Source: an uncultured Candidatus Saccharibacteria bacterium (GTDB taxonomy: Bacteria; Patescibacteriota; Saccharimonadia; Saccharimonadales; CAZDQS01). Taken from it: a DNA stretch of 64,000 nt. Location of the stretch: NCBI GenBank assembly GCA_964507855.1, contig CAZDQS010000001.1, forward strand, positions 166,121 through 230,120, read 5' to 3'. A program made the translations under genes and the position numbers. Positions 1,813 to 51,150 of this stretch are shown piece after piece (the first letter of the stretch is position 1; every line of letters starts with the position of its first letter). The notes below the pieces were generated by a model, which was given only the letters and a program-made list of their open reading frames with translations, did no database searches and was not told where the DNA came from.

Positions 1813-3603
1813 ATGCACAAAGTATTAAAAAATCCGGGACATACTAGAAACAAGGTGCGCAAGCGGGCGGCAACGCTGCTGCCAAAACGCGGGTTCTGGG
1901 CAAAGCAATACACCGTGGCCGCTGTAGGAGTCGTGCTGCTTCTGGTAGCTGGCGGCGTGCTCTATGGATTGGCTTATCGGGGCGGTGAGTCACACGCCAA
2001 CACATCACTGCCGTTTCCTGGTGAGGGCACGGTCGGACACTTGGCGGATATACCCGGCGTACATACACCAGTAACACTCAAAAGTCCGGTGGCCAGCCTG
2101 ACGACTACGCACGACGGCCAGGTGATAGAACGCGAAGATATAACCGGTAAGGGCGGGCTGACTGTTCGGCATCGCAACGTGGTGGTGCGCAACAGCCGCA
2201 TGGAGAGGATACGGGTTGATAATGAATCGTACCCCAACGCCTCGGTCCGCGTAGAATGGTCAACGCTCGGCAACATGCACGGGCCATCAGGTCCGCCAGA
2301 GTATTATCTACCCGCTATTATCAGGGGCAGTAATGTGCATGTCTACCGGAGCGAGGTGTTTGGCGGTATTGACCTCGTTAACTTAATTACGCCTGACGCG
2401 CCGCATGATGTGGTGGTTGAAGAAAACTGGCTCTATGGGCCATACCAGCAACTCAACGACCGCTACCAGAATACAAGAAGCCGTTGGCTGTCGCATAGTG
2501 ACGGGGTGCAGACTCAGGAGGGCAAGCGGCTGCATTTCTTGCGGAATCGCTGGGACTTATTCTTGTTCCAGGGATACCGGTGGAATGGTGGCAGCCAGCC
2601 AAGCGGCTCAGGCAGTAGTTACTGCGGCAACATTAGTAAGAGCGGCTCATGTGAAACCATCGGCCAGACGAAGCTTAGCCCCGCGCCGACTGCCCGCGAT
2701 CAGATTGGTGTGGTGCCGAACATTAACCCCCTCACGACGGGCATGCTCTTCCAGCAGTCGCGCGGTACGATTGAGGATGTGCTGATTGACGGCAACTATT
2801 TTGACTGTGACTGCTATGGATATCTGTCATTCACGAAAGGAAAATATTCCCAAGGCCCGACAAACGTCAGGATAGTAAATAACCTGTTTGTGAAGCGCTA
2901 CTCGACGTTTGGCCGCGATAGGCTGGTCGGGTTTGATACGCCCGGCAACATTAGTTGGGGTAATAACATCGACGAGAACGGCAATCAGATTTCCAAGCCG
3001 AACAGCAGCATGAAATCAATTAGCGTAAGTGGCCCAACGCCGCTCGATTATGCGGATTACCAGCCGCAGCGCCCCGATCTCATTATCGAGAGCATATCGT
3101 GGACGCCGCAGAATCCGAAACCGGGCGATGAGGTAACCTTCAGTGCTACTGTCCGCAACCAGGGTGAAGCGGCTTCACCAGAAGGCGTGCCGCACAAAGT
3201 GCTGTTTCTCATTGGCGATGAGTCTATGTGGTCAGACGATGTCTCGACTTCTTTGGCACCGGGTGCGGTTCGTTCCCAGGCGGCAAACGGCGGTCCCGTA
3301 AAAGCAACGTGGACGGCCGGCGCCGGCAGCTTTGAAGTAACCGCCAAGCTCGATAACGCTAACTTGATTCCTGAAAGCGATGAAACCAACAACACCGCAA
3401 CCGCCGGATTGACTGTAGTTGAAGCCTCGGGGCCTTTACCCGGCGATGTGAATGGTGACGGTGCGGTTAACAGCAGTGACTTGCATGTCATATTGACCCA
3501 CTTCGGTCGCAGTGGCATGACAAAAGCTCAAGGTGATCTGGACGGCAACGGGGAAGTCGGTGCGCTAGACTTAAGCCGGGTGCTTGCAAATTTCAGCCAA
3601 TAA
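1813..3603 (+). CDS. membrane-anchored/secreted protein with beta-helix-like region, CARDB domain and C-terminal dockerin
   Basis: N-terminal TM segment. CARDB-like PDLIIESISWTPQNPKPGDEVTFSATVRNQG...ESDETNNT. Duplicated Ca-binding dockerin repeats GDVNGDGAVNSSDL and GDLDGNGEVGALDL at the C-terminus. Confidence 0.7.
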   Translation: MHKVLKNPGHTRNKVRKRAATLLPKRGFWAKQYTVAAVGVVLLLVAGGVLYGLAYRGGESHANTSLPFPGEGTVGHLADIPGVHTPVTLKSPVASLTTTHDGQVIEREDITGKGGLTVRHRNVVVRNSRMERIRVDNESYPNASVRVEWSTLGNMHGPSGPPEYYLPAIIRGSNVHVYRSEVFGGIDLVNLITPDAPHDVVVEENWLYGPYQQLNDRYQNTRSRWLSHSDGVQTQEGKRLHFLRNRWDLFLFQGYRWNGGSQPSGSGSSYCGNISKSGSCETIGQTKLSPAPTARDQIGVVPNINPLTTGMLFQQSRGTIEDVLIDGNYFDCDCYGYLSFTKGKYSQGPTNVRIVNNLFVKRYSTFGRDRLVGFDTPGNISWGNNIDENGNQISKPNSSMKSISVSGPTPLDYADYQPQRPDLIIESISWTPQNPKPGDEVTFSATVRNQGEAASPEGVPHKVLFLIGDESMWSDDVSTSLAPGAVRSQAANGGPVKATWTAGAGSFEVTAKLDNANLIPESDETNNTATAGLTVVEASGPLPGDVNGDGAVNSSDLHVILTHFGRSGMTKAQGDLDGNGEVGALDLSRVLANFSQ

Positions 3604-29696: not shown

Positions 29697-30320
29697 CTAT
29701 GAGCGTATAAGCACTGCACGTGTTGGTGAACCGTCCAATCCGCGGAAGGCGAGCGGAAAAGCGCAGAGTGTGTAGATGCCGGCGTCAACTTTGCTCAGAT
29801 CCAGGCCCTCTAGGATGGGTATGTCTTTTGTAAGCAGCGCAGTATGAGCGGTATTATCTTTCAGGCCTCGCTTCTTTATGGACAGTGCATCAATACCGAC
29901 AAGTTTTGTGCCCAGCTCTGCCAGGTAGTTCGCTGTTTGGCCTTCGAGGTATACGTAATCATCGTAGAACCGAGAAAACCCTCGGAGCGAATTTGTGGTT
30001 TTAAACAATACGCGTTCTCCGCGTTGGATATCATGTGAAGCAAGGTCGTTAGTGGTAATCGAGGTTGCACAATCAGTCAGATCCAAAACACGGCACGGGC
30101 CATAAAATATGCCCAAGTCTAGGTCGTCTATGTTCTTTGAGTCTGTGAGTGAATGGCTCGGTGCGTCAATGTGCGTGCCGGCATGTGAGGTGAAGCTAAT
30201 CTCAGATAGCACAGAACTGCCGCTCCCGCTTGGGACTTTGGTGATAATAGTCTCGGCAGTACCGGGATATACTGGCATGCCGGCCATGAGCGGCAGGGAA
30301 ATATCAATAAGTTGGCTCAT
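29697..30320 (-). CDS. cyclase-family protein / kynurenine formamidase-like
   Basis: HAGTHIDAPSH metal-binding motif; about 207 aa. Confidence 0.75.
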   Translation of the reverse strand: MSQLIDISLPLMAGMPVYPGTAETIITKVPSGSGSSVLSEISFTSHAGTHIDAPSHSLTDSKNIDDLDLGIFYGPCRVLDLTDCATSITTNDLASHDIQRGERVLFKTTNSLRGFSRFYDDYVYLEGQTANYLAELGTKLVGIDALSIKKRGLKDNTAHTALLTKDIPILEGLDLSKVDAGIYTLCAFPLAFRGLDGSPTRAVLIRS

Positions 30321-30428
30321 AGCAAGGAGTATACCAGGCTACGACTAGAAAGAATCAGTATGACGATATTGAAAACACAAATCTTTGGTGGGGGTGGAAG
30401 GAATTGAACCTTCGACCAATCGGTTATG

Positions 30429-31041
30429 CACGCCACTACAACTTTCGTTGCCTCTTTCGAGTTTGTGGTCCGGACTGTCTCTTCATCCGCCAGGTGGCGG
30501 ATGCCTGCCGTACAGTCTCTACACCTTCCTCGGCAGTAATGCCGGGGCTTGGCTCGGGATTGCCTTACCGCTGATGGCTATAGGGTTCCCCGAATTTGAC
30601 AGGATATACTTACTGGTTACCCGGTAAGCAGCCCTTAGTTTTTTGGCATATCTAAGATAACATGTAGTTATGAAGACTGGGTCTAACTGCCGAATTTGCC
30701 AGAAAAAACTGGCGGGTAAACAAACACTTTACTGTTCAGTACTCTGCAAGAACAAATTTCATCAATCCTACCCTTCACAGAAAAAGCGAGGGCTTGAACG
30801 AAAACTTCGTTTTGTCCGAGAACTTGGAGGAGAGTGCTCGCTTTGCGGCTACTCAGCTAATCTTGCCGCCTTAGTATTTCATCATGTAGGCGGCAAAGAA
30901 TTTCAACTGGACGTTCGTGCCTTGTCGAATCGTAAGCTGGAGCCAATTCTCAAAGAAGTAGCAAAATGCAAACTCCTTTGTCATAACTGCCATGCCGAGG
31001 TCCATAACCCCGGACTAGACTTAGCCAAATTGTTAACTACG
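30429..31041 (-). mobile_element. group I intron (IC3, Azoarcus tRNA-Ile-intron-like core)
   Basis: The 5' exon ends in U and the intron ends in G. The core GUCAAAUUCGGGGAACCCUAUAGC..GGCAAUCCCGAGCCAAGCCCCGG..GCCGAGGAAGGUGUAGAGACUGUACGGCAGG closely matches the remembered Azoarcus ribozyme sequence. Confidence 0.8.
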
Positions 31042-31056
31042 AGCCGACTGCTCTAA
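30670..31056 (+). CDS. HNH endonuclease (putative homing endonuclease), antisense to the intron
   Basis: CRIC...YCSVLC zinc ribbon and the HNH core CSLCG..LVFHHV.....N....L.KCKLLCHNCHAEVH. The last 15 nt overlap the tRNA 5' exon on the opposite strand. Confidence 0.8.
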   Translation: MKTGSNCRICQKKLAGKQTLYCSVLCKNKFHQSYPSQKKRGLERKLRFVRELGGECSLCGYSANLAALVFHHVGGKEFQLDVRALSNRKLEPILKEVAKCKLLCHNCHAEVHNPGLDLAKLLTTSRLL

Positions 31057-31222
31057 CCACTGAGCTACACCCCCCTGTCATCGACGTGTGATTTGTACGG
31101 TAGCTAGCGGCGTGTTCTGTCGCTTTTAGCTACCTTGTCATGCCGTCTTCTTCTATAAAGCTGTAAACCACTTGATTTACAGCTTTATGGTACAACCCAG
31201 TAACATCTGTGAGTATAGCAGA

Positions 31223-32614
31223 TTATTTTGATTTTATCTGCCTGCAGGCGAGTCGAACGGTTTCGCTCCATGTCGGGAAGGCGTGGATGGTTTCGGCGAC
31301 CTGGCGAGCGGTCATGCGGTACTGGATGGCGAGGGTCAGTTCGTGGATCATTTCGCCGGCGCGCGGACTGACAATGCTGGCGCCCAAGAGCACGCCGCGC
31401 TTGTCTGCCAGGACCTTGACGAAGCCGGAGTCATGGCCGCTGGTGTTGGATCGGCCGATAACGCTGATGGGTGCAGCACCAACGTGGAATTTGATACCCT
31501 TTTCCTTGAGCTGCTGTTCGGTGAGGCCGACGCAGGCAACCTCTGGTTCAACGAAGACACAGCGGGGAATTGCGCGGTAATCTGCCGTGCGCGGCTTGCT
31601 GCGATGCAAGAGATTGTGGGCGGCAATGCGGCTTTGGTACGCGGCGGTGTGCGTGAAGCGGTATGGTCCCACCACGTCCCCGGCTGCATAAATATGCTTC
31701 GCCGAGGTTTGCATGCGGCGGTTGGTAATAATACCACCGCGGTTGTAGCGGACGCCGGCATTCTCAAGGCCCATATCAGTGTTCGGTGCCATGCCGGCCG
31801 CAACGAGGATTTCCTCAACGGCCGCTTGGTGGGCGACACCATCTTTCTCAAAATGGACGACTTTCAGCTTGCCCTTTTTGGTCACCCGAGTGACTTTAAC
31901 ACCGGTTTGTACGGCAATGCCGCGTGCTTCAAACAGCGCGGCAAGCAGCTCGCCGACTTCTGAATCTTCTAGGGGGATAAGTCTCGGTGCAATATCAACA
32001 AGGTGGACTTTTGTGCCAAACGTATTGAATAGCTGGGCAAACTCACAACCGATAGCACCACCGCCGATAACGAACAGTGAGGAGGGCGGCGCCTGCAACT
32101 CGATTGCCTCGCGGAAGCTGATGTGTCCCACATCGGCAAGACCGGGGATGGGCGGGGCGACCGGGCGCGTGCCGGTGGCAAGCAAGAAGTTGCGGGCGCT
32201 GTACCGCTTGCCATTGACGCTTACTGTCCAGGGGCTCAAAAAGTGCGCGTGCCCACGAATAACTTTAATGCCCTGGGATGCAAAGAACTCCTCGCCATCG
32301 GTCGTTCCGGTGCGCTTGACAGCGGCCCGCTTCCAGCGGCGGACGGCCGGGTAATCAACGGAAACTTTGGCTTTGATGCCAAACTCGGCACCGCGCTTGA
32401 TGTTCTCGTATGTTTCGGCTGCTTCCAGTAAGGCCTTTGTCGGCACGCAGCCGTAATTTGGGCACTCACCGCCGATGGTGTCCATCTCGATGACGGCAAC
32501 CTTCTTGCCGGCGCGGGCGGCCTGCTCGGCGGTAACGTTGCCACCGGATCCAGAACCGATAACGATCAGGTCATAATCGGGTCGTGCGGGACGGGGATGT
32601 TTTACTTTATACAT
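31223..32614 (-). CDS. FAD-dependent pyridine nucleotide-disulfide oxidoreductase (dihydrolipoyl dehydrogenase / glutathione reductase family)
   Basis: DLIVIGSGSGG, redox-active GGECPNYGCVPTK, NAD site VIGGGAIGCE, C-terminal HAFPTWSE dimerisation motif. Confidence 0.85.
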   Translation of the reverse strand: MYKVKHPRPARPDYDLIVIGSGSGGNVTAEQAARAGKKVAVIEMDTIGGECPNYGCVPTKALLEAAETYENIKRGAEFGIKAKVSVDYPAVRRWKRAAVKRTGTTDGEEFFASQGIKVIRGHAHFLSPWTVSVNGKRYSARNFLLATGTRPVAPPIPGLADVGHISFREAIELQAPPSSLFVIGGGAIGCEFAQLFNTFGTKVHLVDIAPRLIPLEDSEVGELLAALFEARGIAVQTGVKVTRVTKKGKLKVVHFEKDGVAHQAAVEEILVAAGMAPNTDMGLENAGVRYNRGGIITNRRMQTSAKHIYAAGDVVGPYRFTHTAAYQSRIAAHNLLHRSKPRTADYRAIPRCVFVEPEVACVGLTEQQLKEKGIKFHVGAAPISVIGRSNTSGHDSGFVKVLADKRGVLLGASIVSPRAGEMIHELTLAIQYRMTARQVAETIHAFPTWSETVRLACRQIKSK

Positions 32615-45825: not shown

Positions 45826-45900
45826 TGGTAGCGGGGAGAGGACTCGAACCTCTGACCTCGTGGTTATGAGCCACGCGAGCTGCCGCTGCTCCACCCCGCG
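45826..45900 (-). tRNA. initiator tRNA-fMet (CAU)
   Basis: CGCGGGGTGGAGCAGCGGCAGCTCGCGTGGCTCATAACCACGAGGTCAGAGGTTCGAGTCCTCTCCCCGCTACCA. It has a 1:72 mismatch (C1/U72) and A11:U24, and the 5' end is identical to E. coli tRNA-fMet. Confidence 0.85.
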
Positions 45901-48674: not shown

Positions 48675-48751
48675 TGGTAGCAGGGGCGAGATTTGAACTC
48701 GCGACCCCAGGCTTATGAGTCCTGTGCTCTAACCAACTGAGCTACCCTGCC
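48675..48751 (-). tRNA. elongator tRNA-Met (CAU)
   Basis: GGCAGGGTAGCTCAGTTGGTTAGAGCACAGGACTCATAAGCCTGGGGTCGCGAGTTCAAATCTCGCCCCTGCTACCA. The D-arm and variable loop resemble E. coli metT. G1/U72 and A31/G39 are non-canonical. Confidence 0.8.
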
Positions 48752-50274: not shown

Positions 50275-51150
50275 ATGAATCTTCATATTGGACCAGGAAA
50301 TTACGTGGTGGCGGTATCCGGCGGAGTCGACTCGGTGGTGCTGTTGGACGTGCTTGCGAAGAATCCGTCGCTGAACCTGACTGTTGCGCACTTTGATCAC
50401 GGCATCCGGCCGGATTCGGCCGAAGATCGGAAATTCGTGCAGCACCTGGCGGAGGATAAATATGGTCTCCCGTTTGTATTTGATGAAGGGCACCTCGGGG
50501 CGGGAGCGAGCGAAGCCGTCGCACGGGAAGCGCGGTACGCCTTTCTGCGGCGGGTCAAAGAAGCAAGCGGAGCCCGAGCCATCATAACCGCACATCACAA
50601 AGACGACGTGCTGGAGACCGCACTGATTAACATCGCGCGCGGTACGGGCAGGAAGGGATTATCTTCCCTAAAGAGCACGGATGAAGTCGTGCGGCCGCTG
50701 CTCGCGTATACAAAATCAGAGCTTGTGGCGTATGCCCAGGAGCAGGGCCTCGCCTGGCGAGAGGATCCCACCAATAAGCAGGATGCATATCTCAGGAATC
50801 GCATTCGGCACAAACTGCACGACGTTCCGCCGGAGCGGAAAGACTACCTGCATGCCATTATCAAGCGAAGCCGTGCCATCAACGAAGAGATCGATCAGAT
50901 TTTACAGCAGCATCTGACAGATGCCGGCCAGCTGGAGCGGCACTGGTTCATCATGCTGCCACATGCGGTGGCGCGTGAAGTGATGGCGCAGTGGATGCGG
51001 CAGGCGGGCGCTACATTTAACGCGGGTATGGTCGAGCGGTTGGTGGTCGCTGGTAAAACTATGCTTCCCAACCGGCGAGTAGACGTGGATAATACATACC
51101 AACTTGTGGTCGGAAGGGACGAGTTGGCACTCAAGCCACGTGACCGCTAG
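50275..51150 (+). CDS. tilS: tRNA(Ile)-lysidine synthetase
   Basis: PP-loop [13 protein letters not shown]; HFDHGIR; AHHKDD. Confidence 0.85.

Follow-up and report, generated by a model that had tools for sequence, protein, structure and literature searches.

A group I intron between U33 and C34 of a Saccharibacteria tRNA(CAU) gene, with an HNH-type gene on its opposite strand

A survey of 4,934 complete genomes has described 333 group I introns within genes for tRNAs, 12 of which contain endonuclease genes; none of these endonuclease-bearing introns is located in tRNA-Ile2, and the orientation of the genes is not mentioned (Nakagawa et al. 2026, PMC13011429). The same study classed nearly all tRNA introns of Patescibacteria as subgroup IA, and insertion between positions 33 and 34 (33/34) is published both for tRNA-fMet introns and for tRNA-Ile2 introns of subgroup IC3 that lack an open reading frame (ORF) (PMC13011429). 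The locus analysed here belongs to a 64,000-nucleotide (nt) stretch of contig CAZDQS010000001.1, from an uncultured Candidatus Saccharibacteria bacterium (the window, to which positions refer unless another locus is named), in which a minus-strand tRNA(CAU) gene is split by an insert carrying an HNH-type ORF in the opposite orientation. It is read, with good confidence, as a mobile IC3-type group I intron at U33|C34 of most probably tRNA-Ile2(CAU), with the reversed HNH gene placed in the loop of its P1-extension hairpin.

The closest described relatives are the ORF-less IC3 introns at 33/34 of tRNA-Ile2 (Acidobacteriota, GCF_000018425.1; Table S5, PMC13011429), which share with the window the tRNA type, the site and the guide GGGCUG beside P2; these introns are 243-252 nt long and contain no ORF, whereas here a reversed 128-codon gene and its predicted promoter fill the hairpin loop. 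The HNH-encoding tRNA-Asn 35/36 introns of Patescibacteria (Nakagawa et al. 2026, PMC13011429) have the same HNH subfamily and the same host phylum, but their ORF is on the tRNA strand and they occupy another tRNA and another site. The cyanobacterial tRNA-fMet intron with I-Ssp6803I is likewise found at 33/34 of a CAU tRNA and encodes a homing endonuclease aimed at anticodon-loop DNA, although this enzyme is of the PD-(D/E)XK type and the host is an initiator tRNA. The I-Ssp6803I gene is sense-oriented. The Azoarcus pre-tRNA-Ile intron shares the IC3-type core motifs and a CAU tRNA assigned to Ile, but it is 205 nt long, with no ORF and no long P1-extension hairpin. It is placed after the anticodon CAU (36/37), and, since in the window U33 is the last base of the 5' exon and CAU opens the 3' exon, this placement does not apply here. 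The Azoarcus intron is located in the anticodon loop and splices in vitro without protein (PMC13168695).

Antisense endonuclease genes with their own promoter are known from nuclear ribosomal DNA (rDNA), both in the I-DirII intron of Didymium (PMC3073962) and in the L2066 introns (PMC9548176). These genes resemble the one proposed here in being on the opposite strand and in having their own promoter, but they are eukaryotic, encode His-Cys box enzymes and rely on RNA polymerase II promoters, spliceosomal introns and polyadenylation, whereas here the host is a bacterium, the enzyme is of the HNH type and the transcript is predicted to be leaderless and sigma-70-dependent. No antisense endonuclease gene in a bacterial group I intron was found in the searchable literature, including a review and a paper on insertions in rRNA genes of the candidate phyla radiation; the orientation, seen as unusual for bacteria in an earlier note on this DNA, is not unique among group I introns, given the nuclear cases. 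The intron family, the insertion site and the nuclease superfamily are already known. What appears to be undescribed is the combination of reverse orientation, a conserved (predicted) leaderless promoter, placement in a structured P1 extension, triple use of the same DNA and wide distribution. If confirmed, it would give bacteria an equivalent of the antisense endonuclease genes that nuclear rDNA introns carry, and would show cleanly how the same stretch of DNA can act at once as ribozyme helix, promoter and coding tail.

The split tRNA gene and its ribozyme core

The 5' exon of the tRNA (31042-31074, minus strand; nt 1-33, GGGGGUGUAGCUCAGUGGUUAGAGCAGUCGGCU) is 33 nt long and ends in GGCU, U33 being the -1 base, and the 3' exon (30386-30428, minus strand; nt 34-76, CAUAACCGAUUGGUCGAAGGUUCAAUUCCUUCCACCCCCACCA) is 43 nt long, begins with the anticodon (CAUAACC...CCA) and encodes its CCA end. 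Joined, they form a 76-nt canonical cloverleaf with a 7/7 paired acceptor stem, a 5-bp anticodon stem and the anticodon CAU. Between them lies the 613-nt intron (31041-30429), whose last base is G30429. Exons and insert had been read in this way in the earlier note, and comparison with relatives supports both; for this comparison the best 80 of at least 236 loci with a relative of the ORF were fetched. In 75 related loci GGCU always closes the 5' exon and CAUAA always opens the 3' exon, and a G directly precedes CAUAA in 76/76 split genes and in 44/44 aligned cores, while the first intron bases differ among loci (CAAUU, UAAAG, UCAUU, CGUAG). Constant exon ends, variable first intron bases and the G before CAUAA together fix the junction at U33|C34. 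An empty-site allele syntenic with the window (L132) reads the uninterrupted GGCUCAUAACC.

The split gene is missed by ARAGORN under default settings and by the Rfam tRNA model. ARAGORN in intron mode, which had been suggested as a check, does detect it, but puts the boundary 3 nt downstream (36/37) and labels the product tRNA-Thr(CGU). This boundary was rejected because it would give the intron a final U and because CAUAA on the 3' side does not vary, in contrast to the first bases of the intron.

The ribozyme core, from P2 to P9, occupies positions 30448-30657 of the minus strand. It matches Rfam Intron_gpI (RF00028) at 30657-30448 over the full model (1-253) with 54.1 bits (E 6e-11), the gathering score being 50 bits, which supports the group I assignment first proposed. 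An alignment of 44 highly conserved cores, including two ORF-less introns of the fetched loci and one published sequence, was folded with RNAalifold and gave P2, P3, P4, P5, P6 and P8 together with a P9 domain in which two hairpins are capped by GAAA, with compensatory double changes in 40 of the 57 consensus pairs (the pseudoknot P7 is outside this model). Over 209 aligned positions the core is 75.6% identical to the 252-nt IC3-classed tRNA-Ile2 33/34 intron of GCF_000018425.1. This homology to IC3-classed introns, rather than a formal subgroup classifier, suggests the assignment to subgroup IC3. The description of the intron as Azoarcus-like therefore stands for the subgroup of the core and fails for the insertion site. 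The three strings that had been taken as reminiscent of Azoarcus are present, but they are found as well in published IC3 introns of tRNA-Leu, tRNA-Lys and tRNA-Arg, so they mark the subgroup and are not specific to Azoarcus.

Directly 5' of P2 is the putative internal guide sequence GGGCUG (30629-30634, minus strand), whose GGGC is invariant in 44/44 cores. In the proposed P1, G30633 pairs with U31042 (the -1 base), G30632 with C31043, C30631 with G31044 and U30630 with G31045, and G30634 has two possible partners, the first base of the intron and C34 (P10). The U-G, C-G and G-C pairs of P1 are present in 47/47 sequences. The adjacent P2 hairpin (CUUACCGG-GUAA-CCAGUAAG, 30609-30628, minus strand) has compensatory changes in 8/8 pairs, with 95% of the alignment cells paired. 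Transcription of the pre-tRNA from the minus strand would allow the exon end GGCU to pair with the guide GGCU(G) just upstream of P2; guanosine would then attack after U33, the terminal G30429 would set the 3' splice site and the exons would be ligated to ...GGCU-CAUAACC..., in which C34 could be converted to lysidine by TilS.

Two other pairings were considered and rejected. A guide GGCU close to the intron's 5' terminus was discarded because this stretch is the 5' strand of a covarying hairpin and because ORF-less relatives put GGGCUG beside P2. The GGGC-GUCC pairing drawn by RNAalifold is an artefact of an alignment that contains neither the exon nor P7.

Upstream of the tRNA, the region 31075-31222 (minus strand) places about 125 nt, including a hairpin (AAAGCUGUAAA...UUUACAGCUUU), between a TATACT box and the tRNA 5' end; in L132 the tRNA begins only 24 nt past the same box. 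A transcript of the HNH gene would run into this region.

The reversed HNH-type gene, its hairpin and its putative promoter

The HNH-type gene (30670-31056, plus strand) encodes 128 amino acids (aa) and is antisense to both the tRNA and the intron, its last 15 nt overlapping the 5' exon; it is the sole sizeable conserved ORF of the insert. It matches HNH families of PHROGs (E 2e-18) and is 38% identical over 82 aa (E 1e-15) to the ORF of a tRNA-Asn 35/36 intron (GCA_023898525.1), which lies on the sense strand and itself reaches 19.5 bits with PF01844, below the cut-off of 21.4. The same nuclease subfamily is thus antisense here and sense in the tRNA-Asn intron, so that both orientations occur in tRNA introns. 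Across 25 sequences the protein has a motif of the form CxxC...HH...N...CxxCH...H, in which C56, C59, H71, H72, N87, N106, C107, H108 and H112 do not vary and C104 is close to invariant (at least 90%). Of the ORFs, 61 are intact through the catalytic motif and about 7 of 75 are disrupted; the median pairwise ratio of nonsynonymous to synonymous substitution rates (dN/dS) is 0.12, with dS saturated. Judged by these comparisons, the ORF is under strong purifying selection, and the idea of a decaying remnant was rejected on the dN/dS and the number of intact copies. The intact, opposite-strand HNH-type ORF of the earlier note is in this way backed by the PHROGs match, the invariant motif and a dN/dS of about 0.1.

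The ORF is located, as far as comparison of relatives can tell, in the apical loop of a covarying P1-extension hairpin, which spans the region between the 5' splice site and the guide GGGCUG. The 5' strand of the hairpin (UAGUU..UUUGGC-UAAG-UCUAG, 31015-31039, minus strand; covariation helices 3 and 4) is the antisense of the last ORF codons (..LDLAKLL) and pairs with the 3' strand (CUUAGA-UAU-GCCAAA..AACUA, 30635-30656, minus strand), a pairing also supported by covariation. When both flanks were aligned in 47 sequences, the hand-drawn structure was 87.9% paired, against 30-45% in controls in which the partners were slid by 1-3 columns; both-side changes are found in 26 of its 31 pairs, and the proximal and distal stems are 93% and 86% paired, respectively. 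Between these stems, which covary, the internal loop C-UAAG/UAU-G is nearly invariant (C-G in 45/47 sequences, G-U in 39/47). It resembles the 11-nt GAAA-tetraloop receptor (CCUAAG/UAUGG), but its outer pair departs from the canonical motif. The hairpin and its UAAG/UAU loop are present as well in the ORF-less intron of GCF_000018425.1, closed there by a 4-nt loop, and the 128-codon gene would have been inserted backwards into this apical loop.

At its other end the ORF shares 15 nt with the 5' exon (31042-31056, AGC CGA CUG CUC UAA), that is, four sense codons (S-R-L-L) and the TAA stop, one codon fewer than had been counted in the earlier note. The position of this end differs among relatives: it falls 8-13 nt inside the intron in several loci, the stop lies exactly on the junction (TA|A) in most loci outside Saccharibacteria, and in most Saccharibacteria the ORF ends 41-101 nt beyond the junction, its frame crossing the whole exon to give the tail IEPTALTTELHP, an antisense translation of the 5' half of the tRNA. 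Reading frames differ too, the SRLL tail of the window being in another frame than that of most Saccharibacteria owing to a 2-nt difference at the intron start, while the conserved protein ends in ...HNPxLDLAKLL. An end that varies in place and frame points to read-through rather than to a selected feature. On this comparative evidence the exon overlap is incidental, and the dual constraint that had been attributed to it is contradicted by the spread of the stops, which fall anywhere between 13 nt short of the splice site, within the intron, and 101 nt past it. The dual constraint lies instead, by the same comparisons, with the P1-extension hairpin, to whose two strands the ORF tail and the putative promoter are antisense. 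The last codons are the antisense of the hairpin 5' strand (GAC UUA GCC against GGC UAA GUC), and in 24 Saccharibacteria ORFs third-codon-position identity rises from 0.43-0.44 in the ORF body to 0.77 in the seven codons after HNP; such frozen synonymous sites in the tail are expected if the RNA helix is the selected element.

Antisense translation of the tRNA also affects gene calls. Most database entries for the HNH protein (P0002-P0118 range) bear the tail IEPTALTTELHP, and an 80-aa ORF starting with MVGVEGIEPSTN (30385-30627, plus strand) is a spurious peptide from the antisense of the 3' exon and the intron.

The HNH gene is predicted to be expressed, separately from the tRNA, from its own leaderless sigma-70-type promoter. 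The putative promoter (30635-30669, plus strand) is composed of a -35 box TTAGTT (30635-30640), a 17-nt spacer and a -10 box TAACAT (30658-30663), followed by GTAGTT and the ATG, and is proposed from conservation among loci. With 68 loci aligned on the ATG, the plus strand has the consensus TAnAAT-RCRGTT-ATG. The hexamer at -12 to -7 agrees with TATAAT at five or more of six positions in 49/68 loci, and at four or more with A2 and T6 in 60/68; its mean score is 4.76, that of every other offset being at most 3.2. A TTGACA-like hexamer is found 16-18 nt upstream of the -10 box in 40/68 loci. The -35 box abuts CAGCCC, the antisense of the guide sequence, and the ORF-less intron of GCF_000018425.1 already contains UGUCAA-GGGCUG. 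No Shine-Dalgarno sequence precedes the ATG, and a -10 box exactly 6 nt before it predicts a leaderless mRNA beginning at the A of the ATG. The HNH cassette would in this way bring its own promoter, its transcription being independent of the tRNA and convergent with it and its reading frame ending at or shortly beyond the 5' splice site. The separate transcription suggested in the earlier note gains support, at the level of sequence, from the -10 box conserved at a fixed distance from the ATG.

Alternatively, the ORF could be expressed, if at all, from another start, and the conserved TAnAAT could reflect a constraint on the intron RNA. The hexamer falls in the 3'-strand region of the P1-extension hairpin, where RNA constraints do exist, the hexamers of the window are weak (2/6 positions for the -35 box, 4/6 for the -10 box), and a generic promoter and terminator scan of 30300-31300 reported nothing. 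This explanation is nevertheless considered rather unlikely: the -10 hexamer is not found in ORF-less introns, which indicates that it belongs to the inserted cassette and arrived with the ORF, it keeps a constant spacing from the ATG across phyla, whereas the stems around it covary freely, and there is no plus-strand gene upstream that could give read-through transcription.

A short sequence at the start of the gene deserves separate mention. At 30660-30673, and at the same place in 68 loci, the sense RNA UUCAUAAC(C/U)G copies U33|CAUAACCG, the tRNA sequence across the insertion site, and the GTT before the ATG is almost invariant. This copy at the antisense start could be a footprint of cassette invasion or an operator for the nuclease.

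Several of the results weigh against a mobile IC3-type intron with an expressed HNH gene. The Rfam score of the core is marginal, only 4 bits over the cut-off, and several relatives score under it, L028 and L051 giving no Rfam Intron_gpI match. The P1 core pairs never vary, so that they are consistent with the model and provide zero covariation evidence. Searches of the ORF against Pfam (including PF01844), NCBIfam, PDB sequences and PDB profiles gave no significant HNH match, only weak zinc-finger noise, so that the profile check proposed earlier succeeds with PHROGs and fails with Pfam and NCBIfam. An AlphaFold2 model from the 25-sequence alignment has a mean predicted local distance difference test (pLDDT) score of 60, too poor for fold comparison, and with it Foldseek found no match in PDB with E below 1. 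The weak hexamers and the empty promoter scan belong here too, and splicing, the transcription start and cleavage are read from the sequence alone. If the arrangement is confirmed, it would explain why annotation misses both the tRNA and the nuclease, since default ARAGORN, the Rfam tRNA model, Pfam and NCBIfam all fail on it.

tRNA identity and AUA decoding

The window contains three different CAU tRNAs: the split one, one of initiator type (45826-45900, minus strand), identified by tRNA detection, Rfam and comparison and having a C1xA72 mismatch, and one of the elongator-Met type (48675-48751, minus strand), which is 76.6% identical to E. coli metT and 71.8% identical to ileX. It also contains tilS (50275-51150, plus strand), coding for lysidine synthetase, an enzyme whose substrate would be C34 once the tRNA is spliced; its match to TIGR02432 (175 bits against a cut-off of 93.6) bears out the gene already placed at 50275 in the earlier note. 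The split tRNA has a G1-C72 pair and is therefore not of the initiator type, it is 75.0% identical to E. coli K-12 ileX against 71.2% to metT, and its D-loop length and variable loop (UUGGUC) match ileX. The same trio of CAU tRNA types is found side by side in another locus (L086). In five neighbouring genes, including ftsH and tilS, AUA accounts for 19 of 134 Ile codons. It is likely, from these comparisons, that the split tRNA is tRNA-Ile2. The C29-G41 pair is an identity element for IleRS.

The split gene could instead encode the elongator tRNA-Met, in which case tilS would be irrelevant to it. The choice rests on elimination and on small identity gaps (75.0% against 71.2%), ARAGORN labels every CAU tRNA as Met, and a BLAST comparison of the spliced sequence with E. 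coli genomes did not help, its top matches being plasmid tRNA-Asn genes, so that it was replaced by the comparison with ileX and metT. An elongator-Met identity is, all the same, quite improbable, given that the window already holds an initiator-type and a metT-like CAU tRNA, that L086 repeats the three types, that the D-loop length and variable loop agree with ileX, and that the tRNA of the published homologue in GCF_000018425.1 was assigned to Ile2 by 98.6% identity to an Ile2 gene (PMC13011429).

The other CAU tRNAs of the window have peculiarities of their own. The anticodon stem of the elongator-type tRNA has a mismatch, A31xG39, at its base, and the initiator-type tRNA has two of three consecutive G-C pairs. 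Three consecutive G-C pairs are typical of bacterial initiator tRNAs.

The genome was viewed through 64 kb, so that a second tRNA-Ile2 copy outside the window is possible, and the locus could then be a dead tRNA pseudogene disrupted by the intron, AUA being decoded by the outside gene. This is a very improbable reading: the exons are perfectly canonical, the helices of the core and of the P1 extension are kept by compensatory changes in dozens of lineages, and tRNAscan-SE 2.0 (Chan et al.) lists 36 genomes that lack an fMet or Ile2 gene call through insertion of a group I intron (PMC8450103). In genomes with a single copy, AUA decoding would depend on this ribozyme.

Relatives, empty sites and mobility

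The ORF has 244 close homologues in a protein collection clustered at 90%, with 65-81% identity among the best 120 listed, and the few that are named belong to Candidatus Saccharibacteria. In a scan of one genome per species, at least 236 genomes encode a relative. The best 80 loci come from Saccharibacteria, Chloroflexota/Anaerolineae, Peregrinibacteria/Gracilibacteria, other Patescibacteria and Armatimonadota, as well as from Latescibacteria and Krumholzibacteriia, metagenome-assembled genomes (MAGs) labelled Bdellovibrionales and one gammaproteobacterium. In 73 of these 80 a tRNA(CAU) is interrupted by 575-1307 nt that contain the ORF, in every case on the strand opposite to the tRNA. Its distribution among Saccharibacteria is sporadic, and two loci (L049 and L051) have ORF-less introns, of 264 and 250 nt, in their tRNA(CAU).

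Empty sites are abundant. An exact-match scan found at least 120 metagenome contigs with an uninterrupted tRNA and an identical 30-nt anticodon arm; 77 of the 80 uninterrupted loci that were stored hold the full tRNA, and none has an HNH homologue near it. Five tRNAs without an intron match the joined exons of intron-bearing loci at 100% identity. The empty site syntenic with the window (L132) has the same lpd-like upstream gene (70% nucleotide identity) and the same TATACT box, and its tRNA is identical to that of the window at 74 of 76 positions, the difference being one compensatory pair. Intron-less and ORF-less versions, both of which the earlier note had proposed to look for, therefore exist. 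This presence/absence pattern is that expected of a homing element and, by itself, would fit either past or current activity. In the presumed homing reaction, alleles of the tRNA gene without the intron would be nicked or cut by the HNH enzyme around GGCU|CAUAACC, and repair would copy the intron in.

The protein could also have been retained primarily for a role other than homing, such as aiding the folding of the intron, repressing its own promoter or tuning tRNA-Ile2 by antisense transcription. The ORF is intact in about 90% of intron copies, with a dN/dS of about 0.1 and saturated synonymous sites indicating long-term maintenance, its identity to the ORF of the window declines roughly with host phylum, and a target-like copy (UCAUAACYG) is present at the ORF start, which is the predicted transcription start. 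Ongoing homing is feasible, however, because empty sites are abundant and some are identical to spliced exons; the ORF is scattered among Saccharibacteria, there are degenerate and ORF-less copies, which a homing cycle predicts, and no HNH maturase is known to have been described. Retention primarily for such a role is regarded as a minor alternative, of low probability.

A related proposal is that of a self-contained and self-regulating HNH cassette, in which the enzyme would bind the copy of its homing site (UUCAUAACYG) at its own start and repress the promoter, in the manner of I-TevI, which represses at its own operator, while the antisense transcript could modulate how the tRNA, as the sole decoder of AUA, is matured. 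The predicted antisense transcript is convergent with the tRNA and complementary to the 5' half of the intron and to the tRNA 5' exon. The proposal is speculative and seems doubtful, but if true it would mean that in several bacterial phyla a selfish element has become part of the regulation of a tRNA for a rare codon.

Some of the fetched loci depart from the arrangement of the window. In L049 (3001-3369; 5163-5503) and L051 (3001-3360; 4854-5180), from Peribacteria/Gracilibacteria, the HNH homologue is free-standing and intergenic, and the tRNA(CAU) with the ORF-less 33/34 intron lies about 1.8 kb from it, a layout that would suit trans-acting ('collaborative') homing. In an Aggregatilineales MAG (L070, 2883-3463) the HNH homologue (3001-3357) is located between two minus-strand tRNA genes and adjoins an uninterrupted tRNA(CAU) (2883-2954), being free-standing and, as elsewhere, antisense to the tRNAs. 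In the gammaproteobacterial MAG (L072, 2605-4152) a tRNA(CAU) is interrupted at 36/37, past the anticodon, by a group I intron of 251 nt that scores 61.1 bits with Rfam; the HNH homologue is outside this intron, in divergent orientation, and makes up the N-terminal part of a 399-aa ORF, the rest of which is unrelated. The longest insert, the 1307-nt tRNA(CAU) intron of L052 (2027-3408), contains about 700 extra bases that break the 5' part of the core alignment and may be a second insertion. Finally, in a Moranbacteria MAG (L065, 3442-3761) ARAGORN in intron mode reports, directly beside the split tRNA(CAU), a tRNA-Phe(GAA) interrupted at position 34 by 247 nt, so that this cluster may contain two tRNAs with introns.

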